Origin: a virus
UHGV virus genome: UHGV-1350822
Strand: one strand, 5' to 3'
Length of the DNA: 38,999 nucleotides
Part shown: piece after piece, positions 1-38,999 of the stretch
How positions within the stretch are numbered: position 1 is the stretch's first letter
Layout of the letters: every line of letters starts with the position of its first letter
Notes under the pieces: generated by a model
Told to the model about the DNA's origin: nothing
Seen by the model: only the letters and a program-made list of their open reading frames with translations
Databases searched by the model: none
Translations under genes and position numbers: made by a program

Positions 1-115
1 TGGAGCTTCAGGGGCTATGACTGGCGCTGCTCTTGGCTCTATTGTTCCCGGACTTGGCACTGGATTAGGTGCGGCAATTGGCGGCGGACTTGGCCTGCTT
101 GGATCGTTGTTTTAA
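1..115 (+). CDS. C-terminal end of gp7-like ejection (E) protein; continuation of the CDS starting at 38345 (circular wrap)
   Basis: Reading frame is continuous with 38345..38999; Gly/Ala-rich tail ends at TAA 113-115; window start duplicates window end. Confidence 0.7.
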   Translation, partial: GASGAMTGAALGSIVPGLGTGLGAAIGGGLGLLGSLF

Positions 116-124
116 GGGGTAATC

Positions 125-1420
125 ATGGCTACTTGGCAAGGAACAAATGGCGGATTGTTGGCTGGTATCGGTGGTGTCAACTCAAACGCTCCGAGCGTAA
201 ATGACATCGGCAATACGCTTCAGCTTATCAGGCAGAACAATGATATTGAGCGTTCAGGCGCTAACAATGTTGGGCTGACTGCTTTGCAAGGCCTTTCAGG
301 TATTGCGGGGGTGTTTCAGCAGGAAAAGCAGGCTCAGCGGCAGAAAGAATTTCAGCAGGCATACGCTAATGCTTATGCGTCTGGTGATCGCGGTGCTTTG
401 CGTCAGTTGGCTACTCAATATCCAGACCAGATTGAATCCGTTCGTAAAGGCATGGGATTCATTGATGAAGAGCAGCGTAATTCTATCGGCACCTTAGCGG
501 CTGGCGCACGCCTTGCGTCATCGTCTCCAGAAGCAATGCAATCATGGCTGCAAAACAACGCCAATGAGCTGGCGCGCGTCGGTGTTGACCCTAACAGCGT
601 TGCTCAGATGTATCAGCAGAACCCTTCAGGATTTGGTGAGTTTGTTGATCACCTTGGGATGGCTGCGCTTGGTCCGATTGATTACTTCAATGTTCAGGAC
701 AAGATGGCTGGTCGTGAAATTGACCGAGGCAGGCTGGCAGAGACAATCCGCAGCAATCAGGCAGGAGAAGCACTAACAGCTCGAGGTCAGGACATCCAGA
801 TACGTGGACAGAACATCAGCGCACAGAATGCTGCTCTTTCCCGAGAAATACAAAGAGCAGAATTACAAGAAAAGGCTCTGGACAGACAGATAGCCAGAGA
901 AAGCAATCAGTTAAAGCTTGAAGAGCTAAAACAGAAACAGGCAGATGTTCGGCAAAAGGCTGACATAGCCCGCGCTGACAGGCAGGCCGCCGCTCAGGGT
1001 GCAGTTGATACGTTCAGCACTGCGCTTGATTCTCTCAACGAGATAGAGCAAAGCCCCGGCCTTTCAAAAGCAGTAGGAATTCGCTCAGCGTTTCCGACAG
1101 TTCCTGGCTCTGATGCGGCTAACTTTGAAGCAAGGCTCGACACCTTTAAAGCTCAAACATTCCTTCCTATGGTGCAGTCCCTGAAGGGTATGGGCGCTCT
1201 TTCAGATGCTGAGGGTAAAAAATTATCCGATGCGGTTGGTGCCCTAAGCCCCAAAATGAGTGAAAAGGCTTTTCGTGACTCTATCGGAAAGATTAGAAAT
1301 CAGCTTGAAAGCAAGTTGAGCACTGTTAAAAAACAGTTTGATTATCAGGAGCCAGTACAGAATACGCCAGCGCAACAACCTACTACTGGCAGTAACTTTT
1401 CTTCACTATGGGGTGATTAA
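125..1420 (+). CDS. gp20-like DNA ejection/internal virion protein
   Basis: 431-aa ORF, AAGGGG RBS before ATG; position between gp7-like and gp16-like genes as in P22 (7-20-16); coiled-coil/Gln-rich composition. Confidence 0.7.
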
Positions 1421-3723
1421 TGGCTAAAGCATGGAAAGATGTTATCGCCTCTCCACAGTATCAGGCGTTAGCACCAGAACAAAAAGCGCAGGCTCAGGAG
1501 CAATACTTCAATGAAGTCGTGGCACCGCAAGCCGGAGAAAATGCAGAGCAGGCTAAGCAAGCTTTCTATGATGCCTATCCATTGCCTTCAATGCAGACAG
1601 AACAGCAGGAAGTAGGGCAATCTCCTGATACCATTCAGCAAGACAAATCACTTATGCAGCGTGCAGGAGAATGGCTAACAGGTGGGCAAAGCGTAGGTCA
1701 AATTGCCGAGCAGGCGGTAAGAGGATTTGTAAATATTCCTTTTGACGTTCTTCAGGGGGGGGCGAGTCTCATTAATGCCGCATCTCAGAGTTTTGATGGA
1801 CCAAAGATTCTTGATGAAGTATATAGACCAGTTAACCGGCCAACGGATCCGTATGCGCAAGCTGGAGAGTCAATAGGCGGTTATCTTGTTCCTGGAGCAG
1901 GAGTAGCTGGAAACATGGTCATTGGTTCTCTCGCTGACGCGGCGAATCAACGGGGTGATTTTGCCGAAAATGCCGCTATTAATGCCGGACTTAACATTGC
2001 TACGCATGGCCTGATAAATGGCGTTACCCGTGGTGTTCGTGGTGCATCAAATATAATTAGTGGCAATAAAACATCTGCACAGAGAGCGACCACTGCGCCA
2101 ACAGAAACATCACCATTCTCCGGTGATGCCGCTGCAGCAACAAATCCTGCGGTTCATGCCGCAGAGGCAAGAGTAGCACAAGGTGTACCAATGACGCCTG
2201 CGACGAGGAACCCAGAGGAAGTCGTTCGCACAGTAGCAGCACAAAAAAGGCCAAATCTCGCTTCATCGCTTGATGAACTAGATATCAATCCTCAGGCTGA
2301 AGTTCTGGAGTCTGCTGAAAGGCTTAATGTTGATTCATTACTCCCTTCACACTTTTCCGGGAACGAGCAATACAAGGCAGTTGAGCAAGCAATCAAGTCC
2401 CGTGCGGGTTCTGCTCTACAGGTGCAGGAAAATGAAGCAATCAGGCAGCTAGCACAGGGCGCGGGGGAGATAATTGATCGCGTTTCCGGTGCAAAAGATG
2501 CTCTTGGTATGAGCGACAAGTTTATTGATACGGTCAATGGAAGAATGTCTGCGCTGATGAAACGAAGCGACCAGCTTTATCGCAATGTTGAAAAGGCGAT
2601 GCCTGCAGGTGCAAAAATTGATGCACCATCAACAAGGTCAATGCTCAAACAGGTGGCAGAAGATCTTGGCGGGATGAAAAACCTTGACCCTATTGAAAAG
2701 AGAGTCTTTCGGGCAGTTAATCCAGGCAAGAACGGCGCATTAACTTATGCAAATCTCAATAAGCAACGACGACTTGTTGGTGATGCACTTCATAAGAATT
2801 CTGGACCATATAAAGATGCTGATCGCGCTGCTTTATCGAGGCTTTACGGTTCGCTCGCCGATGATCAAAAGGCGGCGCTGTCAGAGACAAATGCATTACG
2901 TGATTTTGAAGTTGCTCAGAGGCTTGTTCAGATGCGAAAAAGCATGGAAGAGCAAATGATTAATCTAACTGGCAGAACGCTGAACGGTGATGTTTCTCGC
3001 AAAGCAACTACAGCACTACAGGCAATGTCGAAAGGCGATGCCAAAGGATTTCGTGAATTGATGCAAAACACGCCGTCCAGGAAGCTAAGAACCGAGCTAC
3101 TGGGAACAGGTCTTCGGGATATGCTTTCGAACGGAAAACGTGGCGCTGATTTTAATCCTGCAGGGTTTGCTGACTGGTATCAAAACATGTTAGCAAACGG
3201 GCAGATGCGCAATCTTGCCCGACATTTACCAAAAGAGACTATGTCAGGTCTGAACGATGTATATAAGGTCGCAAAGGCTATCAAAGATGCAAAATCTTAC
3301 GAGATAACTACAGGAAGACTAAACGAGTTCGTCAAACGGTTTAATCGCGTCACTGCGGCAAATGAATTTGTTGCTAACCATGCCCAACGCATTGGCACTG
3401 CGGTTGGTTCAACTGTGTCAGGACCGTTCAGTGCAGTAGGTGCTGTTGCTGGGTCAGAAATTGGGGCAAAAGTCGCCAGCAAAATCAGGGCGATGGGCGG
3501 CGCTGAATCAATTGAATCTGCAGAAAAGCTAATTAGCTCACCAGAATTCCAGAAAGCAGCAAGGCTGGCAGTAAAACAAGCACCAGAAAGCATCGTTGAT
3601 ACAACTGTAAGACGCTCTTCTGCTTGGCGCTCGTTTTACAACTCACTTCCAGAATCAGATAAGAAAACCATATCAAGGCTAGGCATCATGTACTGGATGA
3701 ACAGTGATGATAACCAGAAGTAA
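1420..3723 (+). CDS. gp16-like DNA ejection protein
   Basis: 767-aa ORF, start overlaps upstream stop (TAATG); synteny with P22 gene 16. Confidence 0.7.
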
Positions 3724-3740: not shown

Positions 3741-4034
3741 TTAGCTGCTGTCTTTTTTATATAGCTCCTTGAGCGTATCAAAGACAATTTTCTTAACCAT
3801 ATCAGATTGTTGTTCTGCCATACGCTCTGCATCGTCAATGTAAACAGATGCAGAGCTTTGTTTAGCCAATGATTCTTCAATCGCTGCAATTATCTCTGAG
3901 TTCAGCGACCTGTTATTCATCTTCGCACGCTGCTTAATTTTCGCGTGGAGTTCATGCGGAAGTCTCAAGTGAAACTGCGCCTCGTCGTATTTGCTGTACA
4001 TCCTTGATGCCTCACCAGTTGGGTGGAATGGCAT
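3741..4034 (-). CDS. mnt: Mnt-like ribbon-helix-helix repressor (Arc/MetJ family)
   Basis: C-terminal region ...NDAERMAEQQSDMVKKIVFDTLKELYKK matches P22 Mnt as recalled; N-terminal RHH segment; alternative start ATG at 4001. Confidence 0.8.
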   Translation of the reverse strand: MPFHPTGEASRMYSKYDEAQFHLRLPHELHAKIKQRAKMNNRSLNSEIIAAIEESLAKQSSASVYIDDAERMAEQQSDMVKKIVFDTLKELYKKDSS

Positions 4035-4122: not shown

Positions 4123-6321
4123 ATGTCAGATATCACCGCAAATGTTGTGGTAAGCATGCCTTCGCAACTCTTCACTATGGCGCGTTCTTTTAAAGCAGTT
4201 GCCAATGGTAAAATTTATATCGGTAAAATTGACGCTGACCCCGTAAATTCAGAAAACCAGATTCAGGTTTATATAGAGAACGAAGACGGCTCTCACGTTC
4301 CTGTTTCGCAACCAATAATCATTAACGCTGCCGGATATCCGGTATATAACGGACAGATTGCCAAGTTCGTAACTGTGCAAGGCCATTCCATGGCTGTATA
4401 TGATGCGTATGGTTCGCAGCAGTTCTATTTTCCCAATGTGCTGAAGTATGATCCCGATCAGTTTAGCCAGCGAATGGAGAATGTTCCTGACATCCATACC
4501 TTAATGAGCGAGCCTGCTGGGAATCACACATTAAATGTAATTGGATACGTACCAGGAACCAACTTTGGCGGCGGGCAGTTTTACTGGGATGCCAGCATGC
4601 CTAAATCTCAGCACAACGGTATCACCATATTTAGCCCCACAGTTCCGTGGGATGGTTCGTATGCTGAGCTCGCTGCTTTCCTTGCGGGAACTGGTGAGAG
4701 TGATGGTGGTGGCTCTGGTTGCTGGATCCGTTCGAATTGTGTGCTCGATGGCATACATACAGTTTGGGCTGGACATGATATTAACGGAGTGCATGATTCA
4801 ACGGCATCGGTTAACGCTTGTATATCAAAATTTGGTGGTGTTAGAGCAATACGTTTTAGCGCCGGTGAGATAAAGTTTAATTACCAAATCAGCCAGCAAT
4901 ATCATGACTCTGCAGGTGTTATACGTAAAACAGCAATTGTAATTAATGGTAAAAATAATTTATTTGTTTACGCAGATAATGATGTAAATATAAATACAGA
5001 TGGAAATGGTGAGGCTGAGCGTGTTTGCTTTGGTTTATTCAACTGCAAAAACTTTAAATTTAATGGTATAAAGTTAAACCAGTCATGCACAAATTTTTCA
5101 ACTGGACCTTCAGATACCACGTTTACCCCTCAAGAGAATTGGTTTGGTTTCGCACTTGAGGGGAGTAGTGGATCTATTAATGATATTGACGTATTGGCTG
5201 CAAGAATCTTTGTAATGGCAGATGCTGATGGTGACGGTGCTATACCAAATGAGGATATAACTCTTAGCAATGTAAGGACTGATTTGGTAACAAATTATAC
5301 ATTTTTCACTAAAAATCTTAATGGAATTGCTAAGATGATTGACTGCCAAACGTACAGAACAGGCAGAAAATGGCATACTTTTGGTGAAGATTTTGCGTGC
5401 TCAGCAAGAACAAAATATTTAATTGCAGAAAGAAATCACTTTATAAGCCCTATAAGTATTCAGTCTAGGATTACTCCTTGGGGGGTGACTGGTGGTGCAG
5501 TTATATCGAATAACATCAAAACAGGACAAGGAATATTCGTTGAGATAGGAGGTGAATCTAACGGTGTTGCAGCGCAGAATGTTGTTATTGATAGCAATAT
5601 AAGCATTGGGGATCAGAACGAGGATGGCACATTTTCATCTCATATTCTAATTATCTGGAATGGTAGTAATGACTACTCAACATCATTCAATGGAATTAAA
5701 ATAACAAAAAATACATTTAAAGGCGGTGGTTATGCCATAAATGATTATGCTGAAACTCAGATGTCTGCATATTGTTATGGACTTGTGATTGAAAACAACC
5801 AGTTTGATAGAACTGATGCCGTAAAAGTAACAATGCCCACATGGAGAAAATCTATATACCGAGGGAATAAGTCATATTTTGTTCATGGCAATACAGGTTG
5901 TGAAATTGGTGGTTATGCTCCAATTATTTCTGACAACGACTTTGATTCTACATATCTAGTATCAACTTCGGGTGTGCGTATCGATGAACCAGTTATTGAA
6001 AATAATGAGTTTAGTAACACTTTAAACTCACCAGTAAATCAACTTATTGACTGGCCTAGTTTTGCTGGAATGATATATAGAGGAAACAGATACACGTTTT
6101 CAATTAAGAAATTTAGAGATAACGCAGATATGGTTTCCTGTGGTTGGCGTTTTGCCGATGTGTCTGCTGGAATAGACACTGCTCCTACTACAACATACCC
6201 TGGGAAAGTGCTGATAAATATAGGCGATATGATTCACAATGCAGGTACTCCTGCATCAGGAACAAACTGGGCATGGTATGGTCTTGGAAACAATACATAT
6301 GGTAATCTTAATATAGCGTAG
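4123..6321 (+). CDS. Tailspike: P22-type N-terminal head-binding domain fused to a distinct beta-helix receptor-binding/depolymerase domain
   Basis: [11 protein letters not shown]...[11 protein letters not shown]...[13 protein letters not shown]...LKYDPDQ matches the P22 gp9 N-terminus; remainder is Asn/Gly-rich repeats typical of a right-handed beta-helix; GGAG RBS before ATG 4123 (ORF track start 4075 is probably too early). Confidence 0.85.
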
Positions 6322-6353: not shown

Positions 6354-7508
6354 TTACTTTTTAATGAATCTCCACTCAAAATTCTTAAAACAGATACAGG
6401 AAATAACGCTACACAGAGATGCAATAAAGGCTATCAAAATTGTGTAATTCACAGTAGACATGCTCGATAGGTTATAGAAATTATTTATTGTTCTCATTAC
6501 TATAGCCATGATAGGCAAATGCAGCAAATAAAGACTATAACTTGCCTCACCTAAATAAACTAATGATTTTATTTTAAATATTTTTGGTTTAGTTATAAGT
6601 ACCATTATAAATAGTAATGAAATGCATGCAAATCTGATTCGTCCATAGCTGTCTGCGGAAGAGCAGAAGATAACAAAAATAGCTATGAAAGAAATGAATG
6701 AGAATATCCAATATTTATCATCAATGTTAACATAAGATTTATTGAATATATATGCACCTAAGGCGCCAACTATAAAATATGGCCACAAAACAAATTCTGT
6801 CATAAAGTCTCTTGCCGCAAGTAACATTACTGCGGAAATGGCAAACATACCATATCTCTTGCTTGCGATGGCAATCGATAATAGAGGGAAAATTAAATAA
6901 AACCTCCATTCATACGGTAGAGTCCATATCACCGCATTTAATCCTGATGCGTTAAAAGAGCCAATGAAGATTTCTGTGCCCAAAAATCCAAACCCAAAAA
7001 AATTTAGGAAGCTTGAAAAATCAACAAAGTTAAGCCTTGCTGAACTGCCGGATAATATAATAGCTAAAATTGCCACCAAAAGCGCAGTAAGCATATATAG
7101 AGGAACGAGTCTTTTTATCCGAGCAACATAAAATTTATTCCAGTCAAATGTATTATTTCCTTTTATTAATTTATCAAAGAACAAAAATCCTGTAATGCAA
7201 AAGAAAATCTGTACACCGAAGCTACCCATATTCCCTGTGATGGAGTATTTTGTGAAGTCTATAAATATGGGCTGAACTCCATTGGTAATAATTGTATGAG
7301 CGCCGTGATTAATAAGAACGCTGAACGCAGCTATCCCACGCAATCCGTCTATAAAGAAATACCTGTTACTTGCAAAGTTGATGTGAGAAAAATAGTTATA
7401 TCGTGTCAATAGTGTAATACATAACACAACGGCTAAAAGAGACAAAAAATATAAATAAAGACTTTGCGCCTCAAAGATCATAATGCACACCATGAGATAA
7501 AATTTCAA
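6354..7508 (-). CDS. oac: Acyltransferase-3 family integral membrane protein, likely O-antigen acetyltransferase (lysogenic conversion)
   Basis: About 10 predicted TM helices; N-terminal R...H motif (RGIAAFSVLINH) and FFCITGFLFF motif typical of acyltransferase 3; very AT-rich; sits between tailspike and int as oac does in Sf6. ORF-track start is TTG at 7508; ATG at 7493 is more likely. Confidence 0.8.
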   Translation of the reverse strand: MKFYLMVCIMIFEAQSLYLYFLSLLAVVLCITLLTRYNYFSHINFASNRYFFIDGLRGIAAFSVLINHGAHTIITNGVQPIFIDFTKYSITGNMGSFGVQIFFCITGFLFFDKLIKGNNTFDWNKFYVARIKRLVPLYMLTALLVAILAIILSGSSARLNFVDFSSFLNFFGFGFLGTEIFIGSFNASGLNAVIWTLPYEWRFYLIFPLLSIAIASKRYGMFAISAVMLLAARDFMTEFVLWPYFIVGALGAYIFNKSYVNIDDKYWIFSFISFIAIFVIFCSSADSYGRIRFACISLLFIMVLITKPKIFKIKSLVYLGEASYSLYLLHLPIMAIVMRTINNFYNLSSMSTVNYTILIAFIASLCSVISCICFKNFEWRFIKK

Positions 7509-7726
7509 AGGATTATAGCAGGGCTACCAGCGCAGATCACCAACTCACTGCTCATGATGAGCATTTCTATGATTATAAAATAACTGCAAAAAGTATTACG
7601 TCTAACAGTGAAGCAGATCACAAAGACGATTTATGAACGTTCTGGTGAATTTGATGATTGCCAGGTAATGTGAGGCATGAACGAGGCACACAAAGCTTTG
7701 TACTATCCGATAGTGGTTAAGATCGA

Positions 7727-8884
7727 TCACTCCACCTTTTCATCAATCCAGTCAGCCCACCACTGCATCATTTCTCTGCGCTTATCTAGATACTGAGCAT
7801 GGTTGTAAATCCCGCGCACAGATCCGCCGTTGGCATGTGCAAGTTGCACTTCAATAGCGTCAGCAGGCCATTCGTGCTCGTTCATAATCGTGCTGAATTC
7901 ATGCCTGAATCCGTGACCGCTTTCCAGACCCTCATAGCCGATTTGTTTGATCACAAGCAATACCGCGTTCTCGCAGATTGGCTTTTTCTTATCGTTGCGC
8001 CCGGCAAAAACAAACTCTGATACTGGTTTAGTGATTGAGCTTAGCGTAGTGAGAAGTTCAACCACCTGGTCTGACATCGGGACAACATGAATTTTGCGTC
8101 CCTTCATCACACTGGCGTCGATGGTGATAATCCTGTTTTCAAAATCGACGTTCTTCCATTGCATGGAACGAAGCTCTTTCGTTCTTAGGGCTGTGTAGCG
8201 TAAAACTTTGGTCGCAATGAGCGATACGATACTTCCTGAAAATGTTGCAAGTGCTTTGTTGAATGCCGGGATCTGGTCGGCAGGTAAAAACGGGAAGTTC
8301 TTCTTGCGGTATCCCTTCATGGCGTCAGCAAGGTCAGGTGCCGGGTTATATTTAGCCCTACCAGTGACAATAGCGTAACGAAAAACCTCGCCGCATCTTC
8401 TGCGGGCTTTGTTGGCTCGCTCCATTGCACCGCGATCTTCAAATCTGCGGATTACTTCCAGCAGTTGCATCGGCTCAATATCCTGAATCTCAAGACCGCC
8501 GATGATGGGTAAAATGTCGTCATCAAACATTTTGGCAAGTTCAGTTGCATAGCCTACTGACCAGACTTGCTTCTTGTGCTCGTACCATTCCTTGTAAATC
8601 GCACTAAATGAATTGTTGCTAGACGAAGACTTTTTCGCCTTTACCGGATCGATGCCAACCGAGATGTCTTTCCTCGCAGTCCATGCCTTATCCCTTGCTT
8701 CCTGCAAAGTCATAAGCGGATATTTTCCGACAGTCAGGATTTTCTCCTTACCGTCAATCTTGTAGCGAAGCTGCCATACCTTTTTCCCTGATACAGGGAC
8801 ATAAAGGTACAGGCCATTACCATCGAGTAGGCGGTATGGTTTTTCTTTCGGCTTTGCTGCTTCAATCTGCTTAACGGTGAGCAT
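7727..8884 (-). CDS. int: Tyrosine integrase, P4/IntS-type (DUF4102 arm-binding N-domain plus catalytic domain)
   Basis: MLTVKQIEAAKPKEKPYRLLDGNGLYLYV N-domain; catalytic residues in HGFRHEF...LAH...Y; ORF track extends to GTG 8920 but ATG 8884 matches the usual IntS-type N-terminus. Confidence 0.9.
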   Translation of the reverse strand: MLTVKQIEAAKPKEKPYRLLDGNGLYLYVPVSGKKVWQLRYKIDGKEKILTVGKYPLMTLQEARDKAWTARKDISVGIDPVKAKKSSSSNNSFSAIYKEWYEHKKQVWSVGYATELAKMFDDDILPIIGGLEIQDIEPMQLLEVIRRFEDRGAMERANKARRRCGEVFRYAIVTGRAKYNPAPDLADAMKGYRKKNFPFLPADQIPAFNKALATFSGSIVSLIATKVLRYTALRTKELRSMQWKNVDFENRIITIDASVMKGRKIHVVPMSDQVVELLTTLSSITKPVSEFVFAGRNDKKKPICENAVLLVIKQIGYEGLESGHGFRHEFSTIMNEHEWPADAIEVQLAHANGGSVRGIYNHAQYLDKRREMMQWWADWIDEKVE

Positions 8885-9045
8885 GGGTAAAAATCCGGTG
8901 GGTAAAATTATTTTATCCACTTTTTACCCGTCATGGAGTGCGGCTGTCAACGATCTGACGCGAACCATGACGAACCGTGAATATACGTAAGGCTTGATAT
9001 TCAGGGGATTTTGCGGACTGGTACGGATGGGAGCGAACTGATAAA

Positions 9046-9084
9046 TGGTGTCCCCTGCAGACATCTACTTGACGAGGCAGGGGA
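9046..9084 (-). other. Candidate attP core: 15 nt identical to the 3' end of tRNA-Arg (argW) including CCA, inside an 8-bp inverted repeat
   Basis: 9046-9060 TGGTGTCCCCTGCAG is the reverse complement of CTGCAGGGGACACCA (argW 3' end as I recall it); inverted repeat TCCCCTGC(9051-58)/GCAGGGGA(9077-84); about 161 nt upstream of int ATG. Confidence 0.5.
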
Positions 9085-9133
9085 TTGATTTGAATGGTGT
9101 TTTTTAGATGTGAGAAATATTTTACCCGCTATT

Positions 9134-9334: not shown

Positions 9335-9365
9335 GAGTGCTATCTCCGAATAGGGAATCGAACCT

Positions 9366-9389
9366 GCAAATCAGGCAATAAAAAACCGC
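9366..9389 (-). terminator. Rho-independent terminator (leftward transcript) upstream of xis
   Basis: Stem CCGCC/GGCGG with loop on the minus strand, followed by a TTTTTTATT run. Confidence 0.6.
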
Positions 9390-9442
9390 CATCAGGCGGC
9401 TTGGTGTTCTTTCAGTTCTTCAATTCGAATGTTGGTTACGTC

Positions 9443-21295: not shown

Positions 21296-21297
21296 GT

Positions 21298-28628: not shown

Positions 28629-28630
28629 AC

Positions 28631-29071: not shown

Positions 29072-30483
29072 CCTCGATTAATCCTATCTTTGAACCGTTC
29101 ATTGAGGCGCATCGCTACAAAGTTGCCAAAGGCGGTCGAGGTAGCGGTAAATCATGGGCAATTGCGAGGCTGCTTGTTGAGGCGGCACGTCGGCAGCCTG
29201 TGCGTATTCTCTGCGCTCGTGAACTGCAAAACAGTATCAGCGATTCGGTAATCCGGTTGCTTGAAGATACCATCGAGCGTGAAGGGTATTCGGCTGAGTT
29301 TGAAATTCAGCGTTCCATGATTCGTCATCTCGGAACGAATGCTGAGTTCATGTTCTACGGCATCAAAAACAACCCGACGAAGATTAAATCGCTCGAAGGC
29401 ATTGATATCTGCTGGGTGGAAGAAGCGGAAGCGGTAACGAAGGAATCATGGGATATCCTGATACCAACCATCCGTAAGCCGTTCTCTGAAATATGGGTGA
29501 GCTTTAACCCGAAGAACATACTCGACGATACCTATCAGCGATTCGTTGTAAATCCTCCCGATGATATTTGCCTGCTGACGGTGAACTACACCGACAATCC
29601 GCACTTTCCTGAAGTTCTCCGTCTGGAGATGGAAGAGTGCAAACGCAGAAATCCGACACTGTATCGTCACATCTGGCTTGGTGAGCCAGTAAGCGCAAGT
29701 GATATGGCAATCATCAAACGTGAATGGCTTGAAGCCGCAACCGATGCGCACAAGAAACTCGGATGGAAAGCGAAAGGCGCTGTTGTCTCTGCGCATGACC
29801 CATCAGATACAGGGCCAGATGCTAAAGGTTATGCATCGCGTCACGGTTCGGTTGTTAAGCGCATTGCCGAAGGCCTGCTGATGGACATCAACGAGGGTGC
29901 TGACTGGGCTACTTCGCTGGCGATTGAAGACGGCGCTGACCATTACCTGTGGGATGGTGATGGTGTTGGTGCCGGGCTACGCAGACAGACAACGGAAGCG
30001 TTCTCCGGCAAGAAAATCACCGCCACGATGTTCAAGGGCAGCGAATCGCCATTCGATGAAGATGCGCCATATCAGGCCGGAGCATGGGCTGATGAAGTCG
30101 TACAGGGTGACAACGTTCGCACTATTGGTGATGTGTTCCGCAATAAGCGAGCGCAATTCTATTACGCGCTGGCTGACAGGCTTTATCTGACATATCGGTC
30201 GGTTGTCCACGGTGAGTATGCAGACCCCGACGACATGCTGAGTTTCGACAAAGAAGCGATAGGCGAGAAGATGCTGGAGAAGCTGTTTGCAGAACTGACG
30301 CAGATTCAGCGCAAATTCAATAACAACGGGAAGCTGGAGCTAATGACTAAGGTCGAAATGAAGCAGAAGCTCGGCATTCCATCTCCTAACCTGGCTGATG
30401 CGCTGATGATGTGTATGCATTGCCCGGAGTCGGCTGCGCAACCCGACTATTCCAGTTACTCAATTCCTTGTGGTGTAGGTTGA
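29068..30483 (+). CDS. Terminase large subunit (ATPase/nuclease)
   Basis: Walker A KGGRGSGKS; 471 aa; ATGA overlap with TerS. Confidence 0.95.
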   Translation: MTSINPIFEPFIEAHRYKVAKGGRGSGKSWAIARLLVEAARRQPVRILCARELQNSISDSVIRLLEDTIEREGYSAEFEIQRSMIRHLGTNAEFMFYGIKNNPTKIKSLEGIDICWVEEAEAVTKESWDILIPTIRKPFSEIWVSFNPKNILDDTYQRFVVNPPDDICLLTVNYTDNPHFPEVLRLEMEECKRRNPTLYRHIWLGEPVSASDMAIIKREWLEAATDAHKKLGWKAKGAVVSAHDPSDTGPDAKGYASRHGSVVKRIAEGLLMDINEGADWATSLAIEDGADHYLWDGDGVGAGLRRQTTEAFSGKKITATMFKGSESPFDEDAPYQAGAWADEVVQGDNVRTIGDVFRNKRAQFYYALADRLYLTYRSVVHGEYADPDDMLSFDKEAIGEKMLEKLFAELTQIQRKFNNNGKLELMTKVEMKQKLGIPSPNLADALMMCMHCPESAAQPDYSSYSIPCGVG

Positions 30484-30484
30484 T

Positions 30485-32683
30485 ATGGCAGAAAAAAAGA
30501 TGACTGACTGGCATCGCAAGGTGCTGTGCAACTTTGATAATGCCTGGTCAGCAACGAAGGATATGCGTGAGCAGATTATAGAAGCTCAACGCTTCGTCAG
30601 GGTGTCCGGCGCACAGTGGGAAGGCAGCACAAATGCTGGTTACTCATTTGATGAAGGCAGGTTCGAGCATTATCCGCGCTTTGAACTGAATAAGATTGCC
30701 CGTGAATGTGATCGCATCATTGGCGAGTATCGACAGAATCGCATCAGCGTTAAATTCAGGCCGAAGGATGACAAGGCATCGGAAGCGTTAGCCGAAAAAA
30801 TGAACGGCAAATTCCGCGCTGACTATCAGGAAACATCCGGTGGCGAAGCGTGTGATAACGCATTTGATGATGCTGTAACGGGCGGATTCGGTTGTTTCCG
30901 CATGTGTGCTGATTACGAAGATGAAATGGATCCGAGTAACGAGCAGCGACGCATCAGCCTTCTTCCTGTTTACGACCCGGCGACATGCGTCTTCTTTGAT
31001 CAGGACAGCAAGCAATATGACCGCTCTGATGCTATGTGGGCTATGGAAATGTTCTCCATGACGCCTAAAGCGTTCGAGGCTGAATACCCTGATTCCATCG
31101 CGGCAAGCCTTTCTCGTGATGACACTGGTACTCAGTATGACTGGTCAACTCCTGATGCCATCTATGTTGGACGCTACTACGAAGTCCGCATAGAGAAGGT
31201 GAAGCTCACAGCATGGCGTAACCCTGTCAGCGGAGAAACGGCAATCTATGATGAAGAGCAAATCAAAGATATTGTCGACGAGCTGACCGATGGTGCATTC
31301 GAACTGATTGGCGAGCGAACGGTGAAGAAACGCCGCGTTTATTGCGGTCTTCTGTCTGGCGCTGAATGGCTGGAAGAACCGAAGCGTATTCCGGGCGAAC
31401 ATATTCCTCTCATCCCGGTATATGGGCGTCGCTCATTTGTTGATAATCAGGAGCGAATCGAAGGCCACGCTGCAAAAGCGATGGATGCACAGCGTCTTGA
31501 GAACCTGATGGTTTCCATGATTGCAGATAACGCTACTCAGGCTGGCGGTGATGGCATTCCTGTAGTTGATGTTGACATGATTCCTGGTCCTCTCGCCACT
31601 CATTGGGCGGAGCGCAACAAAAAGCGCCCGGCGTTCCTGCCGATGGTCAGTCTGAAAAACAAAAACGGAGATATTACTGCGCAGGCTCAGGTCAGCAGTT
31701 ATACGCCTTCGACACAAATGCCTCCAGCTCTTGCCGGGCTATTGCAGTACACCGGAACGGCTATTCAGCAAATTACAGGTGCGTCTCAGCTTGAGAACAT
31801 GCCGAGCAACGTCGCCACCGATACCGTTGATAGCATCTTTAACCGGATGGATACGCAGTCCTATATCTACATGGACAACATGGCTAAATCCATGCGTCGC
31901 GCTGGCGTTGTGTGGCTTTCTATGGCGCGTGAGGTCTATGGAAGTGATACGCCGATGCGTATCGTTAATGAGGATGGCAGCGATGACGTGGCGCTGATGA
32001 CTGGTGAAGTGGTTGACCGTCAGACAGGGCAGGTTATCGCGCTTAACGACCTTTCGCAGGGTAACTATGAAGTGACTGTCGATGTCGGTCAGTCGTTCGC
32101 TACTCGCCGTGATGCAACGGTTAAGTCGTTACTTTCCATGCTGGCACTTATCCCACCAGGAACGCCGAAGCACGACCTTGTATCGTCGATGATTCTCGAC
32201 AATATGGACGGCGAAGGGATGGACGACCTTAAAGAATACAACCGCAATCAGTTGCTTCTGTCTGGCGTTATCAAGCCGAGAACGCCTGAAGAACAGCAGA
32301 TGGTTGAACAGGCGAAACAACAACAGGCCAGTCAGCCAGATCCGGCTATGGTTGCAGCGCAAGGTCAGCTTCTTGCTGGTCAGGCTGAATTGCAGAAAGC
32401 GCAGAACGAACAGGCAGCCATTCAGGTTAAAGCATTCCAGGCACAGACGGATGCTCAGGTTGCTGCGGCAAATGTTGTGAAAATCCTCGCATCTGCCGAT
32501 AGCCAGCAAAAATCTGATATCCGTGAGGCGCTGAAACTGCTCGGACAGTTCCAGCAACAGCAAGGAGACAATGCCCGTGCTGATGCAGAGCTTGTCCTGA
32601 AAAGTCAGGCACAGGGCCATGCACAACGAATGGACATCAGCAGCATCCTGCAAAAATCAACCCAGCAACAACCACAGCAGTAA
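30485..32683 (+). CDS. Portal protein (P22 gp1 type with long C-terminal Gln-rich barrel helix)
   Basis: 732 aa; position after TerL; C-terminal Q/A-rich coiled segment. Confidence 0.9.
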   Translation: MAEKKMTDWHRKVLCNFDNAWSATKDMREQIIEAQRFVRVSGAQWEGSTNAGYSFDEGRFEHYPRFELNKIARECDRIIGEYRQNRISVKFRPKDDKASEALAEKMNGKFRADYQETSGGEACDNAFDDAVTGGFGCFRMCADYEDEMDPSNEQRRISLLPVYDPATCVFFDQDSKQYDRSDAMWAMEMFSMTPKAFEAEYPDSIAASLSRDDTGTQYDWSTPDAIYVGRYYEVRIEKVKLTAWRNPVSGETAIYDEEQIKDIVDELTDGAFELIGERTVKKRRVYCGLLSGAEWLEEPKRIPGEHIPLIPVYGRRSFVDNQERIEGHAAKAMDAQRLENLMVSMIADNATQAGGDGIPVVDVDMIPGPLATHWAERNKKRPAFLPMVSLKNKNGDITAQAQVSSYTPSTQMPPALAGLLQYTGTAIQQITGASQLENMPSNVATDTVDSIFNRMDTQSYIYMDNMAKSMRRAGVVWLSMAREVYGSDTPMRIVNEDGSDDVALMTGEVVDRQTGQVIALNDLSQGNYEVTVDVGQSFATRRDATVKSLLSMLALIPPGTPKHDLVSSMILDNMDGEGMDDLKEYNRNQLLLSGVIKPRTPEEQQMVEQAKQQQASQPDPAMVAAQGQLLAGQAELQKAQNEQAAIQVKAFQAQTDAQVAAANVVKILASADSQQKSDIREALKLLGQFQQQQGDNARADAELVLKSQAQGHAQRMDISSILQKSTQQQPQQ

Positions 32684-32773
32684 TTAACCCATAACGTGCA
32701 ATGGCTGTCTTTATGAGGCCTTGCACCCTATTGCCTTCCGATGGGCTGAACATCGAGTAAACAGGGGTAACAA

Positions 32774-33667
32774 ATGGACCAGATGGCAGAAAACACACCA
32801 GAAGTTGAAATCGAAACCGACGCGTCAGAGCAGATTCCTGATGATGTCGAACTGGCTGAAGAAGTCGAAACAGAAGATGGCAGTGAGTCCTCCGGCAATG
32901 ATGCAGAGGAAGCTACTGAAACTGATGACGACGAATCAGAACAGGAATTCTACTTTGGTGACGAAAAGCTGGATTCGCCAACCAGCGAAGATGGCGCTGA
33001 GCATGGACTGGTAAAACACCTGCGCAAGACGATTAAAGAGAAAGACCGCGAGCTGAAAGAGCTGATGCGTCAGTCTCAGAAACCCGTCGAGCAGCAGCCG
33101 GTAATCACTCACCCACCGCGAATGCCAAAACTGGATGATGAGGACATCGGTTTCGATGAAGAAATCTACCAGCAACGCATGGCTAAGTGGGCAGAGGATA
33201 ACGGCAAGTACCAGCAACAGGAGATGGCTCGCAAGCAGAAGGAGCAGGAGCTTCAGGCTGCCTATCAAGAGCGATTATCCAAATATCAGCAACGTGTTAA
33301 GGCTCTCAAAGTTCCTGGCTATCAGGAAGCTGAGCAGGCCGTACTCGAGGAAATTCCCATCGAGACACAAAACGCGATCCTGTTTGAGTCAGAGAAGCCG
33401 GAAATCGTTGTTCTGGCGCTCGGTCGCAACGCTGAACTGCGCAAGCAACTGGCAGAAGCTACCAACCCCGTAGCAATTGGTCGTCTGCTGGAACGTATCG
33501 AATCGAAGGCCAGAATCATGCCAAAAGCAAAAACCACGGCAGCCACAACCCCGACAGTTAAGGGGAGCAACGGCGCAGTAATCAATAACCTCGACAAACT
33601 GAAAGCCAAGGCGCTGGAAACTGGTGACTGGACGCCGTATTTCGCCGCTAAAAAGGCAAAAAAATAA
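32774..33667 (+). CDS. Scaffolding protein
   Basis: 297 aa, highly acidic and helical with charged repeats, basic C-terminus; between portal and coat. Confidence 0.85.
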   Translation: MDQMAENTPEVEIETDASEQIPDDVELAEEVETEDGSESSGNDAEEATETDDDESEQEFYFGDEKLDSPTSEDGAEHGLVKHLRKTIKEKDRELKELMRQSQKPVEQQPVITHPPRMPKLDDEDIGFDEEIYQQRMAKWAEDNGKYQQQEMARKQKEQELQAAYQERLSKYQQRVKALKVPGYQEAEQAVLEEIPIETQNAILFESEKPEIVVLALGRNAELRKQLAEATNPVAIGRLLERIESKARIMPKAKTTAATTPTVKGSNGAVINNLDKLKAKALETGDWTPYFAAKKAKK

Positions 33668-33685
33668 CCTATCGGAGCATTAAGC

Positions 33686-34939
33686 ATGGCTAACCAATTA
33701 GCAAAAGACCTTGAAATCATGTTCGAAAACTACGTTGAAGGCTTTGAGGCCGCCTGCGTAGTTTCCCGTAACGCTAAAAAATTCCGTCCCGGTGATACCG
33801 CAATGCAGCGAGCAGGTGATGTTCTGTATCGTCCGCAGCATTACCACATGAACATTGAAGAAGGCCTCGATCTCAGCGGCAAAACGCCTACAGCACTGGT
33901 TCAGCGCCTTGTTCCTTCTGTGTTCAAGGAGCCGAAAAACATTCTGTACACTCTGGATGCGCGTGAAATGCGTGACCCGGAACATAAAACTGAAGCTGGT
34001 CGAGCCGCAGGTATGCGCCTTGCTGCACAGATTGACTCTGACCTGATTTCCATGGTCACGCAGCGTGCTACTAACGTGATCACGATGGGTGACTCAACCA
34101 CAGGTTCACAGGGCCGTGATTTGTGGAACTGTGCGGCAGGTATTGATGCCACCATGACGGCGATTGGTGTACCTCAGGGTATCAACCGTCGCTCTTTCTG
34201 GAACCCCTTCAACTACAAAGACCTTGCTGGCGAGCTTGGTCACCGTGCCTATGCTCAGGGCGCAACCCTGACAGCATACGAAAAAGCGCAGATCCCTCCG
34301 GTTGCGTCCTTCGATAGCTACAAGACCGATATTTCTGGTCGTGTTCCGAAGGGTACAGCAACTTCCATTACGCTGGCAGCAGCACCTGCGCACAAGGTTG
34401 AAGCGAAAGATGCTAACGATATGCCAGTGGATAACCGACAGGGGACCATTACGGTATCTGCTGAAGGTTTGCAGGTTGGCGATGCGTTTACCATTGCAGG
34501 GGTGAATTCTGTACACCAGATCACCAAAGATACCACCGGGCAGCCGCAGGTATTCCGCGTTCTGGCAGTAAGCGGAACGACAGTAACTATCTCCCCGAAA
34601 ATTCTGCCGCCTGACAACGCGGATGTCGCCAGCCGACCATATGCAAACGTTGATGCTAACGCGGCAAATGGTGCAGCAATTACCATTCTCAACAAAAATG
34701 CCGCACCGGCTAACCTGTTCTGGGCTGATGGTTCTGTTGAGCTGATGTACGGCAAACTGGCGTTCCCGACTGGTCAGGGTCCACAGGTAATGACAGCAAC
34801 CACCGAGCAGGGCGCTACGCTGATCATGTCTTACGCCTTCGACCACATCAAAGGCGTAACCACTGCTCGTTTCACCACTCTGTACGGTTGCTCTGTACTT
34901 GTTCCTGAATATACGGGCATCGTTATTGCCGGGCAGTAA
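33686..34939 (+). CDS. Major capsid (coat) protein
   Basis: 417 aa; position; followed by a strong terminator, as expected for a highly expressed coat gene. Confidence 0.9.
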   Translation: MANQLAKDLEIMFENYVEGFEAACVVSRNAKKFRPGDTAMQRAGDVLYRPQHYHMNIEEGLDLSGKTPTALVQRLVPSVFKEPKNILYTLDAREMRDPEHKTEAGRAAGMRLAAQIDSDLISMVTQRATNVITMGDSTTGSQGRDLWNCAAGIDATMTAIGVPQGINRRSFWNPFNYKDLAGELGHRAYAQGATLTAYEKAQIPPVASFDSYKTDISGRVPKGTATSITLAAAPAHKVEAKDANDMPVDNRQGTITVSAEGLQVGDAFTIAGVNSVHQITKDTTGQPQVFRVLAVSGTTVTISPKILPPDNADVASRPYANVDANAANGAAITILNKNAAPANLFWADGSVELMYGKLAFPTGQGPQVMTATTEQGATLIMSYAFDHIKGVTTARFTTLYGCSVLVPEYTGIVIAGQ

Positions 34940-34946
34940 TTTTGGT

Positions 34947-34966
34947 GGGGCTTCGGCCCCATTTTT
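34947..34966 (+). terminator. Rho-independent terminator with UUCG tetraloop after the coat gene
   Basis: GGGGC-TTCG-GCCCC followed by ATTTTTATT. Confidence 0.8.
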
Positions 34967-34980
34967 ATTGGGAGAAGACA

Positions 34981-35169
34981 ATGGCACGAACAATGCTCTA
35001 TAAGCCTGGCAACATGATCACCTGTGGTCAGTTTGCTGTCGATTACGTCATTGTTGATGACGAAGAAGTTAAATCTCACCTGAAAAAAGGTTGGGTAAAA
35101 ACTCCTGAAGAAACCGCAACGAAGCAAAAAGTGGCTAAGGCGGAAGAAGATGGCAAAAACGAAGGGTGA
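34981..35169 (+). CDS. Small hypothetical virion-region protein
   Basis: 62 aa from ATG 34981; the ORF track starts earlier at 34942, inside the terminator. Confidence 0.45.
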   Translation: MARTMLYKPGNMITCGQFAVDYVIVDDEEVKSHLKKGWVKTPEETATKQKVAKAEEDGKNEG

Positions 35170-35611
35170 TCTCGTTCTAAAGGCTTTGCGAAAAGCCGGG
35201 TTGTATTCCAATGCCACGTTGACAGATGCTGACCCTCAGGCAATTGAAGATGCCATTAATGACCTCGAAGACATGATGGCAGCATGGCAGGCGAAAGGTA
35301 TCGAGCTTGGGTATCAGTTTGCTGATACAGAAAACGGCATCATGCCGTTACCTGACGATGATTCAGGTATCCCTACATGGGCAAATGATGGCGTCGCTTT
35401 GAAACTCGCTGTGCAAGTGTGCATGGATAACGTCATTCAGCCGTCAGACGCTCTCCTTACCGCTGCTGACAGTGCATATCAAACAATCTGTATCGCTTTA
35501 ACCAAAATACCACCACTTGAGCGGCGAAATGACATGCCTCGCGGTAGTGGTAACAAAAGCGCGTTTACGTGGAATCGGTTTTACATCGAGAAAGATGATC
35601 CGAGTACGTGA
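35150..35611 (+). CDS. gp4-like head-tail adaptor (tail accessory factor)
   Basis: 153 aa; synteny with P22 gene 4. Confidence 0.8.
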   Translation: MAKTKGDLVLKALRKAGLYSNATLTDADPQAIEDAINDLEDMMAAWQAKGIELGYQFADTENGIMPLPDDDSGIPTWANDGVALKLAVQVCMDNVIQPSDALLTAADSAYQTICIALTKIPPLERRNDMPRGSGNKSAFTWNRFYIEKDDPST

Positions 35612-35620
35612 GGTGAATAA

Positions 35621-37039
35621 ATGCCGATTCAGCAACTTCCGCTCATGAAAGGCGTCGGCAAAGACTTTAGAAACGCCGACTATATCGACTATCTGCCAGT
35701 GAATATGTTGGCTACACCCAAAGAAATCCTTAACAGCAGCGGATATCTTCGCTCATTCCCGGGCATTGCCAAACGTTCTGATGTGAACGGTGTATCTCGC
35801 GGCGTCGAGTACAACATGGCGCAGAGTGCTGTTTATCGCGTGTGTGGTGGCAAACTGTACAAAGGAGAAAGCGAGGTTGGTGATGTTGCCGGAAGTGGTC
35901 GCGTATCAATGGCGCATGGTCGGACATCACAGGCGGTAGGCGTTAATGGTCAACTGGTCGAGTATCGCTATGATGGCACGGTTAAAACAGTCTCAAACTG
36001 GCCTACAGACAGCGGATTCACGCAGTATGAGTTAGGTTCGGTTCGTGACGTTACGCGCTTACGTGGGCGTTATGCGTGGTCAAAAGATGGTACTGATTCA
36101 TGGTTTATCACTGACCTTGAAGACGAATCGCATCCTGACCGCTACAGCGCACAATATCGCGCAGAATCGCAGCCGGACGGTATCCTCGGCATCGGAACAT
36201 GGCGAGACTTCATCGTCTGCTTTGGTTCATCGACGATTGAATATTTTTCCCTGACTGGGGCAACCACCGTTGGTGCCGCTTTGTATGTCGCACAGCCATC
36301 ACTGATGGTGCAGAAAGGCATTGCCGGAACTTACTGCAAAACGCCGTTTGCTGATTCGTATGCGTTCATCAGCAATCCGGCAACAGGTGCTCCGTCTGTA
36401 TACATCATCGGCTCCGGTCAGGTATCACCAATCGCCAGCGCGAGCATTGAGAAAATTCTCCGCTCCTACACTGCTGATGAACTGGCTGATGGTGTGATGG
36501 AGTCTCTGCGATTTGATGCGCATGAGCTGCTGATTATCCATCTTCCGCGCCATGTTCTCGTGTACGACGCATCTTCAAGCGCCAATGGTCCGCAATGGTG
36601 TGTGCTGAAAACGGGCCTGTATGACGATGTGTACCGCGCTATCGACTTCATTTACGAAGGCAATCGGATAACGTGCGGTGATAAGCTGGAGTCCGTGACC
36701 GGGAAATTGCAATTCGACATCAGCAGCCAGTACGACAAGCAACAGGAACACCTGCTGTTTACTCCACTCTTCAAAGCAGATAACGCCAGAGTTTTCGACC
36801 TTGAAGTTGAATCTTCAACTGGCGTTGCGCAGTATGCTGACCGCCTTTTTCTCTCTGCAACCACTGACGGCATCAATTACGGGCGTGAGCAGATGATTGA
36901 GCAGAATGAACCGTTCGTTTACGACAAACGTGTTTTGTGGAAGCGAGTAGGGCGCATCAGGAAAAATGTTGGCTTCAAATTGCGCGTTATCACGAAGTCA
37001 CCTGTCACTCTGTCAGGCTGCCAGATAAGGATTGAGTAA
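35621..37039 (+). CDS. gp10-like tail hub protein
   Basis: 472 aa, the same length as P22 gp10; synteny. Confidence 0.85.
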
Positions 37040-37887
37040 TGGCGGATTCGAATCTCAATGTGCCGGTAATCATCCAGGCTACGCGGCTCGATACATCAGT
37101 CCTTCCACGCAATATCTTCTCGCAGTCGTATCTGCTTTACGTTATCGCACAGGGCACTGATGTTGGTAATGTGGCTAACAAGGCCAACGAGGCCGGACAG
37201 GGCGCTTATGATGCACAAGTCAGGAACGATGAGCAGGATGTGATTCTCGCTGACCATGAGCAGCGAATTTCTGCTGCGGAAGCAACGCTTGTTAATCATG
37301 AGGAGCGAATCAGCCAGGCAGAATCAACTCTTCAGGAACATGAAACGCGAATCGCTCAGAATGAAAGCGATATTGCGTCGCTTGATACCAGAGTTCAGTC
37401 GCTGGAGTCGCAGGTTTCAGACCATGAAACGCGCATTGATGCTCTGGAGTATGCAACCACGCGCAAGAAGTCAGAGGTTGTTTACTCTGGCGTATCTGTA
37501 ACCATCCCGACAGCGCCGACCAACCTTGTTAGCCTGCTGAAAACGCTCACGCCGTCATCCGGCACGTTGGCACCATTCTTCGACACCGTTAACAACAAGA
37601 TGGTTGTGTTCAACGAGAACAAAACATTGTTCTTCAAGCTGTCGATCGTCGGGACGTGGCCCAGCGGAACCGCTAACAGATCAATGCAGCTAACCTTTTC
37701 CGGCTCTGTTCCTGACACACTGGTTAGCAGTCGTAATGCGGCGACAACAACCGACAACATCCTGTTAGCTACGTTCTTCAGCGTGGATAAAGACGGATTT
37801 CTTGCCACAAATGGCAGCACGTTAACCATTCAGTCAAATGGTGCGGCGTTTACTGCCACAACCATCAAGATAATCGCGGAGCAGTGA
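37039..37887 (+). CDS. gp26-like tail needle with extended C-terminal knob domain
   Basis: N-terminus [43 protein letters not shown]...[12 protein letters not shown] matches the P22 gp26 N-terminus; heptad-like coiled coil; extra C-terminal domain (282 aa versus about 233 in P22). Confidence 0.9.
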
Positions 37888-38342
37888 TGATTCAGTTCAA
37901 ACCAACGCGAAACATCGACCTGATCGAAGCAGTCGGAAATCACCCTGACATTATCGCCGGAAGCAATAACGGTGATGGATACGACTACAAGCCTGAATGC
38001 CGTTACTTCGAGGTGAACGTGCACGGGCAGTTCGGCGGCATTGTTTACTATCAGGAGATTCAGCCGCTGACATTCGATTGCCACGCCATGTATCTGCCAG
38101 AGATTCGCGGCTTCAGCAAGGAAATCGGGCTGGAGTTCTGGCGATACATTCTGACTAACACCACCGTTCAGTGCATCACATCGTTCGCTGCACGCAAATT
38201 CCGCCACGGGCAGATGTACTGCGCAATGATTGGCCTTAAGCGTGTAGGAACCATCAAGAAATACTTCAAAGGCGTGGATGACGTGACGTTTTACAGCGCC
38301 ACACGCGAAGAACTAATCGACTTCCTGAATCACGGGAGATAG
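37884..38342 (+). CDS. gp14-like virion assembly/ejection-associated protein
   Basis: 152 aa; position between the tail needle and gp7-like gene; GTG 37884 or ATG 37887 start. Confidence 0.6.
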
Positions 38343-38344
38343 CC

Positions 38345-38999
38345 ATGTTATATGCATTTAAGCTGGGCAGAAAACTGCGCGGCGAGGAACCTTATTGCCC
38401 TGAAAAAGGCGGGAAAGGTGGCAGCTCTGATAAAAGCGCAAAGTATGCAGCAGAAGCTCAGAAGTATGCCGCAGACCTGCAAAATCAGCAGTGGCAGACG
38501 ATCATGAAAAACCTTGCTCCGTTCACGCCGCTTGCGGAGCAGTATGTTAACCAGTTGCAGAATCTTTCCAGTTTAGAAGGTCAGGGGCAGGCACTTAATC
38601 AGTATTACAACTCTCAGCAGTATAAAGACCTTGCAGGTCAGGCGCGTTACCAGAGTCTTGCTGCTGCGGAGGCGACTGGCGGACTTGGTTCGACAGCCAC
38701 AAGCAATCAACTGGCTACGATTGCTCCGACTCTCGGTCAGTCGTGGTTATCAAACCAGATGAGCAATTACAACAATCTGGCAAACGTTGGGCTTGGTGCT
38801 CTGCAAGGTCAGGCAAACGCCGGGCAGACGTACGCCAACAACATGAGCAGCATTGCACAGCAAAGCGCAGCTCTTGCCGCTGCTAATGCCAACAAACCAT
38901 CAGGTCTTCAGACAGCAATTAGCGGTGGAGCTTCAGGGGCTATGACTGGCGCTGCTCTTGGCTCTATTGTTCCCGGACTGGGGCCTGGATTATGTGGGG
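38345..38999 (+). CDS. gp7-like ejection protein, N-terminal part (continues at 1..115 across the circular junction)
   Basis: ORF runs to the window end in frame with 1..115; the last ~74 nt duplicate the window start. Confidence 0.7.
   Translation, partial: MLYAFKLGRKLRGEEPYCPEKGGKGGSSDKSAKYAAEAQKYAADLQNQQWQTIMKNLAPFTPLAEQYVNQLQNLSSLEGQGQALNQYYNSQQYKDLAGQARYQSLAAAEATGGLGSTATSNQLATIAPTLGQSWLSNQMSNYNNLANVGLGALQGQANAGQTYANNMSSIAQQSAALAAANANKPSGLQTAISGGASGAMTGAALGSIVPGLGPGLCG

Follow-up and report, generated by a model that had tools for sequence, protein, structure and literature searches.

The described systems closest to the DNA studied here are lambdoid and P22-like. CUS-3 (CP000711) is a K1-specific P22-like prophage of Escherichia coli RS218. 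Sf6 (NC_005344) is a Shigella phage of the genus Lederbergvirus, for which Casjens et al. reportedly described headful packaging in 2004. HK620 (NC_002730) is a further relative, and KplE1 (CPS-53) of E. coli K-12 is a 10.2-kilobase (kb) defective remnant. The recombination module of the KplE1 type has a 16-nucleotide (nt) core, CTGCAGGGGACACCAT, which is conserved in HK620, Sf6 and CUS-3 (PMC2951348). Here, we analysed the UHGV virus genome UHGV-1350822, a stretch of 38,999 nt whose full length we call the window. It is very probably the whole genome of a temperate, short-tailed, P22-like E. coli phage of the Lederbergvirus type, present as free or excised DNA and 38,615 base pairs (bp) long when collapsed. 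A preliminary description had called the window a mosaic P22-like temperate phage and not a chromosomal region, which agrees with the full virion set, the lambdoid early region, the lysis cassette, int/xis and the intact attP reported below. It had also called the genome circularly closed; this is supported by the overlap of the window ends, but only after the collapse of two 100-N scaffold gaps that the description had overlooked.

The features on which the circular structure depends are the following:

1–74, no strand: start copy of the end overlap, within the gp7 gene; the faithful copy
38926–38999, no strand: end copy of the end overlap, with five mismatches in its last 20 nt
38345–38925, + strand: gp7-type DNA ejection protein, N-terminal part, 96% identical to Sf6 gp11; the reading frame continues in 1–115
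1–115, + strand: gp7-type ejection protein, C-terminal part and stop codon, 231 amino acids in all
25173–25272, no strand: run of 100 N, a spurious scaffold gap with an exact 55-nt flanking overlap (25118–25172 equals 25273–25327)
28075–28174, no strand: run of 100 N, a spurious scaffold gap with an exact 55-nt flanking overlap (28020–28074 equals 28175–28229)

As previously noted, the last 74 nt of the window repeat the first 74. The two copies are identical at 69 of 74 positions, the exact run comprises the first 54, and all five mismatches fall within the last 20 nt, three of them being changes to G. An exact match of 54 nt cannot be chance. Against one independent contig, the start copy has 2 mismatches in 130 nt and the end copy 5 in 123 nt, with an alignment that ends 7 nt before the contig end. 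Because the start copy is closer to this contig, the odd bases at the very end look like contig-end errors, which they probably are; their bias towards G may be tied to Illumina read tails. With the duplicate removed, a single open reading frame (ORF) of 231 amino acids runs from 38345 through the joint to 115, as the preliminary description had stated for the junction, and matches phrog_598 (‘DNA ejection’, gp7-type) end to end in the PHROG scan. One megablast alignment to Sf6 (6826–11723, 95.3% identity) is collinear across the end joint, and therefore no sequence was lost or gained there. The window ends thus appear to be assembly break points inside gene 7 rather than physical ends of the DNA.

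The exact 55-nt overlaps at both 100-N runs mean that the window is a scaffold of three contigs (1–25172, 25273–28074 and 28175–38999) with spurious gaps. The contig ends overlap by about 55 nt round the whole circle, and the window holds no other repeat of at least 40 nt besides the end repeat and the two N-flanking overlaps. Collapsing the three overlaps yields a circle of 38,615 bp with 47.1% G+C, not one of 38,925 bp. Once collapsed, the stretch from Q to R (1747 nt) has a single match in E. coli 873.10 over 100% of its length at 99.5% identity, and 398 genomes cover at least 80% of it. The collapsed stretch from Rz to TerL (2466 nt) is matched in the same way by E. coli UTAK-1 (single match, 100% of the length, 98.4%), with 44 genomes covering at least 80%. 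In prophages like that of strain N767, both collapsed stretches are contiguous, from Q through TerL. Two ORFs that span the N runs, 25130–25312 and 28001–28282, were discarded as artefacts, and a 155-nt spaced repeat near tR′ was rejected as a biological duplication, since it equals the N gap plus the overlap. A graph assembler using words of about 55 nt would have split the circle into three contigs; a scaffolder would then have bridged two of the breaks with 100-N spacers, leaving the third as the overlapping window ends. By the terminal-repeat criterion, a circular genome counts as complete when its two contig ends share a direct repeat of 20 nt or more and the sequence is uninterrupted. 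The exact part of the repeat measures 54 nt, and the sequence is interrupted by the two 100-N runs, which are spurious by the overlaps and the genome matches. The record is thus best handled as 38,615 bp, stripping both 100-N gaps with the 155-nt duplications and the 74-nt end repeat before annotation or comparison.

The gene content of the circle is that of one phage. The virion genes outside gene 7 and the tailspike are arranged as follows:

28386–38342, + strand: virion assembly genes hkbM, TerS, TerL, portal, scaffold, coat, gp4, gp10, needle with knob and gp14
125–1420, + strand: gp20-type ejection protein, 431 amino acids, 98% identical to Sf6
1420–3723, + strand: gp16-type ejection protein, 767-amino-acid allele, assigned by PHROG scan

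The P22-type virion cluster is complete, with all 13 genes at full length and in canonical order (terS, terL, portal, scaffold, coat, gp4, gp10, gp26, gp14, gp7, gp20, gp16, tailspike). The lambdoid early and regulatory layout is likewise present, with int-xis, early left, N, cI, cro, cII, O, P, nin, Q and lysis. Each essential function occurs in one copy, none doubled or absent. PHROG scans of about 60 ORFs returned phage functions only, in line with the earlier statement that every gene is phage-like. No host gene was found among the genes checked in the window, and neither a scan for transfer RNA (tRNA) genes nor a search for Rfam families at gathering thresholds found any in the window.

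The excised state is indicated by the recombination module:

7727–8920, − strand: IntS-type tyrosine integrase, 98.7% identical to K-12 IntS
9045–9060, no strand: attP core, ATGGTGTCCCCTGCAG, the reverse complement of the argW 3′ end, between int and xis
9134–9334, − strand: Xis/TorI recombination directionality factor, 100% identical to TorI
9341–9379, − strand: pI promoter/cII site as annotated in HK620, holding a 16-mer equal to the argW T-arm (9354–9369)

All features of the argW recombination module are present, namely an IntS-type integrase, TorI and the exact core CTGCAGGGGACACCAT between both genes, and the assignment of int/xis to the KplE1/argW type made in the preliminary description is thereby confirmed (Int 98.7% to IntS, Xis 100% to TorI, 16-nt core exact). 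Its placement of int-attP in the middle of the map holds loosely, the core lying at 9045–9060 between int and xis. Over 40 nt, the int-side arm of attP is identical to the flank of K-12 KplE1 attL; the arm on the side of xis matches that of attR. As an intact attP core lies between int and xis within one contig, the DNA represents the excised form rather than an integrated prophage. An integrated prophage with host flanks was rejected, given that the window holds no host DNA and attP is intact in contig 1. In integrated relatives (E. coli W, JNE132847 and many contigs), tailspike, acyltransferase, intS, argW and yfdC stand at one end and torI at the other. By analogy with such IntS-type prophages at argW in E. 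coli W, JNE132847 and other contigs, the phage would integrate at argW and be excised from it.

Several further observations concern this module. The minus-strand 16-mer at 9354–9369, TTGCAGGTTCGATTCC, equals the argW T-arm and belongs to the pI/cII site, which lies directly upstream of xis. With the attP core, this 16-mer makes up the last 31 nt of argW in two halves, which are separated by 293 nt that include xis; Sf6 and HK620 have the same arrangement around xis. In the CUS-3 GenBank record the T-arm 16-mer is used as ‘att core’ and the record stops before xis, which may reflect a mis-set prophage boundary. In the complete chromosome record of E. coli ET151 (NZ_CP100996, locus 8778–10384), intS adjoins torI in an attP-type joint within a P22-like prophage, many of whose genes are frameshifted; this points to either a tandem prophage or a fault in the assembly of the record.

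A circle put together from three contigs might also be a chimera of at least two related (pro)phages, lambdoid or P22-like, that were together in one sample and whose contigs were joined where they share 55-nt words. Some of the apparent mosaic would then be an artefact of assembly, above all the S-R-Rz-Rha contig 25273–28074. The three breaks do all fall in stretches common to many relatives (the 6S/tR′ region, upstream of hkbM, and gene 7), no internal repeats account for them, and the exact whole-genome combination was not seen elsewhere in our comparisons. However, both collapsed N joints are uninterrupted matches, with about 870–1500 nt per side, in independent complete genomes, and in N767, among other genomes, the sequence from Q to TerL is unbroken. 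Sf6 is collinear across the end joint, each essential function is present in exactly one copy, and the size fits the group (38.3–41.7 kb in the reference genomes compared), so that we regard a chimera as unlikely. Smaller again is the likelihood that the sequence is of chromosomal origin, either from a tandem double lysogen with an attP-like joint or from an integrated prophage extracted as an assembly-graph circle. The ET151 chromosome illustrates that attP-type joints can occur in chromosomal assemblies, but no host sequence is found anywhere in the window, and contig 1 is unbroken through attP, where attL/attR branching would be expected to break it. In either of these cases, the sequence would still correspond to one complete phage genome unit. 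Direct terminal repeats are known in other short-tailed phages, e.g. the T7 group, and the same 74 nt at the window start and end could be read as a genuine 74-bp direct terminal repeat at the physical ends of a linear genome. Such a repeat would fall centrally within gene 7, an essential gene. The mismatches between its copies are concentrated at the very end of the contig, and homologues do not show them. TerL shares 100% identity with the TerL of Sf6, a headful packager, and the two internal joints carry the same signature of an overlap of about 55 nt. We rejected this explanation on its position inside gene 7 and the shared overlap signature, and give it next to no credence.

Some points weigh against reading the window as one whole, excised phage genome. 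As no internal repeats lie behind the three contig breaks, the sample seems to have contained DNA of related phages as well, with some risk of mis-joining, and the circle and its three joints are known from the assembled sequence alone. Among the genomes compared, the highest coverage of the window by a single one is about 61%. In the GenBank phage records, coverage stays below 80% for either window part searched, as it does in complete E. coli genomes for bases 1–25000; the exact gene combination is without an independent counterpart among the genomes compared. The exact coat allele of 417 amino acids (33686–34939) is absent from a gene index of 153 billion positions. Lastly, virion structure, host and integration are predictions from the genes.

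Turning to the modules of this excised phage genome, the head genes are, by protein comparison, of the CUS-3-type subgroup and not of the P22 or Sf6 type. Identity to the CUS-3 counterparts is 99% for TerS, portal, scaffold and gp4 and 94% for the coat, whereas these five proteins show 29–41% identity or no match with P22, and 33–56% or no match with Sf6. On these values, head genes of the P22 type were rejected. P22 itself is distant, with 29% identity for the coat, 35% for the portal and no match for TerL. TerL is 100% identical to that of Sf6, and the needle with knob, gp14, gp7 and gp20 are also Sf6-type. The structural block had been described as P22/Sf6-type, with a comparison of TerL, coat and portal proposed as a check. 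This assignment stands for TerL, the needle, gp7 and gp20 as Sf6-type, but fails for the head genes: the coat (94%) and the portal (99%) follow CUS-3, the Sf6 portal reaches 56% and the Sf6 coat gives no match. The coat is 99% identical to the coats of Kapi1, Sf101 and a prophage. It differs from its nearest relatives at 4 residues, and positions 135, 328 and 329 are unlike all seven homologues compared; these odd residues may be real variants or sequencing errors.

The 767-amino-acid gp16 shows at most 40% identity to five reference phages over any substantial stretch, and an index of public assemblies lists the exact protein in 59 blocks. Residues 94–198 match a PHROG family labelled ‘transglycosylase’, and RefSeq homologues are named ‘lytic transglycosylase domain-containing’. 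Searches of Pfam, NCBIfam and PDB sequences found no transglycosylase domain in gp16, and no obvious SLT motif was seen on reading. According to a review, gp16 of P22-like phages is without a transglycosylase domain (PMC8954989). We do not endorse the label, whose source is one PHROG family and RefSeq product names only; it may be an annotation artefact or denote a very divergent domain.

Between gp16 and the integrase lies a block with the tailspike and a predicted lysogenic conversion gene:

3741–4034, − strand: Arc/Mnt-type repressor, 49% identical to P22 Mnt; an immI remnant
4123–6321, + strand: tailspike of 732 amino acids, with a P22 head-binding domain and a receptor-binding domain unlike those of the reference phages
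6354–7508, − strand: O-antigen acetyltransferase of the acyltransferase-3 family, predicted lysogenic conversion gene; the likely start gives 375 amino acids

The N-terminal head-binding domain of the tailspike is matched over its whole length by Pfam PF09008 (E = 7e-66) and, in a PDB sequence search, by the tailspike N-terminal domains of Sf6 and P22. Its receptor-binding part (residues ~118–718) reaches at most 42% identity to any phage in the GenBank collection searched; the nearest sequences are tail fibres of long-tailed phages, e.g. ACG-M12 and K1M, and the PDB sequence search returned no solved structural relative. Even so, the exact 732-amino-acid tailspike is common in bacterial assemblies: it has index entries in 269 blocks, and in each of the four distinct places shown it belongs to an argW prophage. 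The same acyltransferase of 375 amino acids stands beside the tailspike in all three of the shown places that have downstream sequence. This pairing of tailspike and acetyltransferase may give a hint of the host O-antigen type. The Arc/Mnt-type repressor gene stands alone between gp16 and the tailspike, without a following ant (antirepressor) gene, as a remnant of P22 immI.

The early, immunity, late-control and lysis regions occupy the remainder of the circle:

9443–15488, − strand: early-left operon with ea-type genes, a Mu-Gam-like protein (12598–13086), RecT (13064–13975) and cIII (within 14365–14640)
15489–17584: HK620-type immunity region with N, nutL, OL1–3, hkaS (16129–16518), cI (16515–17231), OR1–3, cro (17332–17532) and nutR
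17641–20418, + strand: cII, O and the DnaB-type helicase P; O and P 99% identical to Sf6, with 11-nt iteron arrays at 18487–18593 in O
20494–24302, + strand: nin region with NinB, DNA adenine methyltransferase, NinE/F, Roi, HNH, RusA and NinH
24299–25375, + strand: lambda-type late control with Q (24299–24922), pR′ (24965–25000) and the 6S leader with tR′, split by an N gap
25800–27017, + strand: lysis cassette with S (dual start MKM), R, Rz and embedded Rz1 (26779–26964)
27360–27878, + strand: Rha-family regulator, with its true ATG at 27360

The immunity region is that of HK620, with cI 100% identical, N, cro and hkaS 98% identical, and all operator and nut sites exact. The hkaS-like gene (16129–16518, − strand) overlaps the end of cI in the same orientation, in the position of lambda rexAB. 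Neither Pfam nor PADLOC gave a match for it; it is a candidate prophage-expressed exclusion or defence gene. PADLOC likewise matched no defence system among ten small or uncharacterised early genes, including the one downstream of cI. On the minus strand at 12598–13975, the recombination module pairs RecT with the Mu-Gam-like protein (Gp157 family), as in HK140 and Kapi1, and is unlike both the Erf/Abc module of P22, Sf6 and CUS-3 and lambda Red.

Late control and lysis had been described as lambda-type from Q to Rz, and this applies to all members except the last. Q is 100% identical to lambda Q, pR′-6S-tR′ matches lambda 44510–44807 at 291 of 298 positions without gaps after gap collapse, and S and R are 99% identical to lambda. 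Rz is 59% identical to lambda as against 97% to Sf6 and 90% to P22; a lambda-type Rz was rejected on these identities in favour of the Sf6/P22 type. Between tR′ and S, at ~25532–25557, lie the last ~26 nt of a tRNA-Thr gene, where ARAGORN found no tRNA. Sf6 and Kapi1 carry intact tRNA-Asn and tRNA-Thr genes at the site of this remnant, which is the scar of a module exchange.

From established knowledge of P22, Sf6, HK620, lambda and KplE1, the following life cycle can be proposed. The tailspike would bind, and probably cleave, a particular O-antigen, and gp7, gp20 and gp16 would be ejected along with the DNA. An HK620-type cI/cro/N switch with cII and cIII would choose between lysis and lysogeny. 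In the latter case, IntS would insert the phage at argW and the acyltransferase would modify the O-antigen of the lysogen, with TorI (Xis) directing excision. Lambda Q acting at pR′/qut would allow read-through of tR′ into S-R-Rz/Rz1 and the virion genes. The CUS-3/Sf6-type terminase would package by the headful, giving circularly permuted, terminally redundant chromosomes, and such DNA would be expected to assemble as a circle. We infer headful packaging from the 100% identity of TerL to Sf6 TerL together with the circular assembly.

For every base of the window there is a known lambdoid or P22-like sequence that covers it at 90% identity or more. One stretch had no match at first, but a 43-mer taken from it occurs in 62 IMG/VR contigs, which shows that this stretch is common. 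The best single relative among 90 loci compared is a prophage covering 61% of the window. The product of identity and coverage, from megablast only, is highest for Kapi1 (0.47), Sf101 (0.45), CUS-3 (0.43) and Sf6 (0.41) among phages and reaches 0.59 for a prophage. The ICTV (International Committee on Taxonomy of Viruses)-style genus threshold is a whole-genome nucleotide similarity of about 70%. P22, a member of the same genus, aligns to 19% of the window, so genus members may share little DNA. The parts of all modules are known, and the novelty lies in their combination only, not in a new kind of element. We see an evenly balanced case for a genuine, viable mosaic that is new at the species level, and the first free (excised) phage genome with the E. 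coli W-type tailspike-acetyltransferase pair, here alongside a CUS-3 head, HK620 immunity and lambda Q. The genome illustrates the free recombination of head, tail-tip, immunity, late-control and integration modules; as one more natural shuffle of known modules in a well-studied phage group, it carries little weight beyond bookkeeping.

Comparing the genome with CUS-3 reveals close similarity in the head region. TerS, TerL, portal, scaffold, gp4 and gp10 are 99–100% identical at the protein level and the coat 94%, and a single DNA alignment covers window positions 28175–37262 at 96%. The integrase (99%) as well as S and R are also the same. However, the CUS-3 tailspike is an endosialidase and its needle is short and P22-type. 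CUS-3 also has an ant/mnt region, its gp20 and gp16 are only 34–37% identical, and its immunity region, O/P and Q (phage-21 type) differ. Its record is without xis, and only about 45% of the window aligns.

Sf6 contributes a different set of likenesses. TerL is 100% identical and gp10, the needle with knob, gp14, gp7 and gp20 are 96–98% identical; int/xis reach 98–100%, with an identical attP core between the two genes. Values of 98–99% for cII, O and P and of 97–100% for S, R and Rz are found as well, and the Sf6 oac gene also adjoins int. Whereas these parts agree, the portal is 56% identical, the coat gives no match at E ≤ 1e-5, the enzyme domain of the Sf6 tailspike is different, and oac is a different gene (22%). 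Sf6 further has a 434-like immunity region, Erf/Abc recombination, a phage-21 type Q with two tRNA genes, and IS911.

The resemblance to HK620 centres on the immunity region, which is 99.2% identical over 15489–17963, and extends to Roi, HNH, RusA, NinH, the lambda-type Q, an exact pR′, IntS, TorI and attP. In contrast, the head genes of HK620 are Sf6-type; its gp20, gp16, tailspike, Rz and recombination module all differ, and an O-antigen polymerase takes the place of the acetyltransferase. Lambda itself resembles the genome in Q, pR′-qut-6S-tR′, S with its dual start, and R only. It aligns to just 8.7% of the window, and it has a long tail, cos-site packaging, its own Int/attP, and O with a lambda-type P.

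At the integration module, KplE1 is the measure, with IntS at 98.7%, TorI at 100%, and the core and both arm flanks in common. In the KplE1 remnant, the module is split into attL and attR, whereas here its two halves form one attP. In E. coli W (NC_017664), the argW prophage has a P22-type head (a coat of 431 amino acids, a TerL of 499) and a gp16 of 665 amino acids, and sits at argW. Its Arc-tailspike-acyltransferase-intS block, in contrast, is 99.3–99.7% identical to ours at the DNA level, with 99.7% for the tailspike and O-acetyltransferase genes, and the 732-amino-acid tailspike is identical, as it is in many identical prophages.

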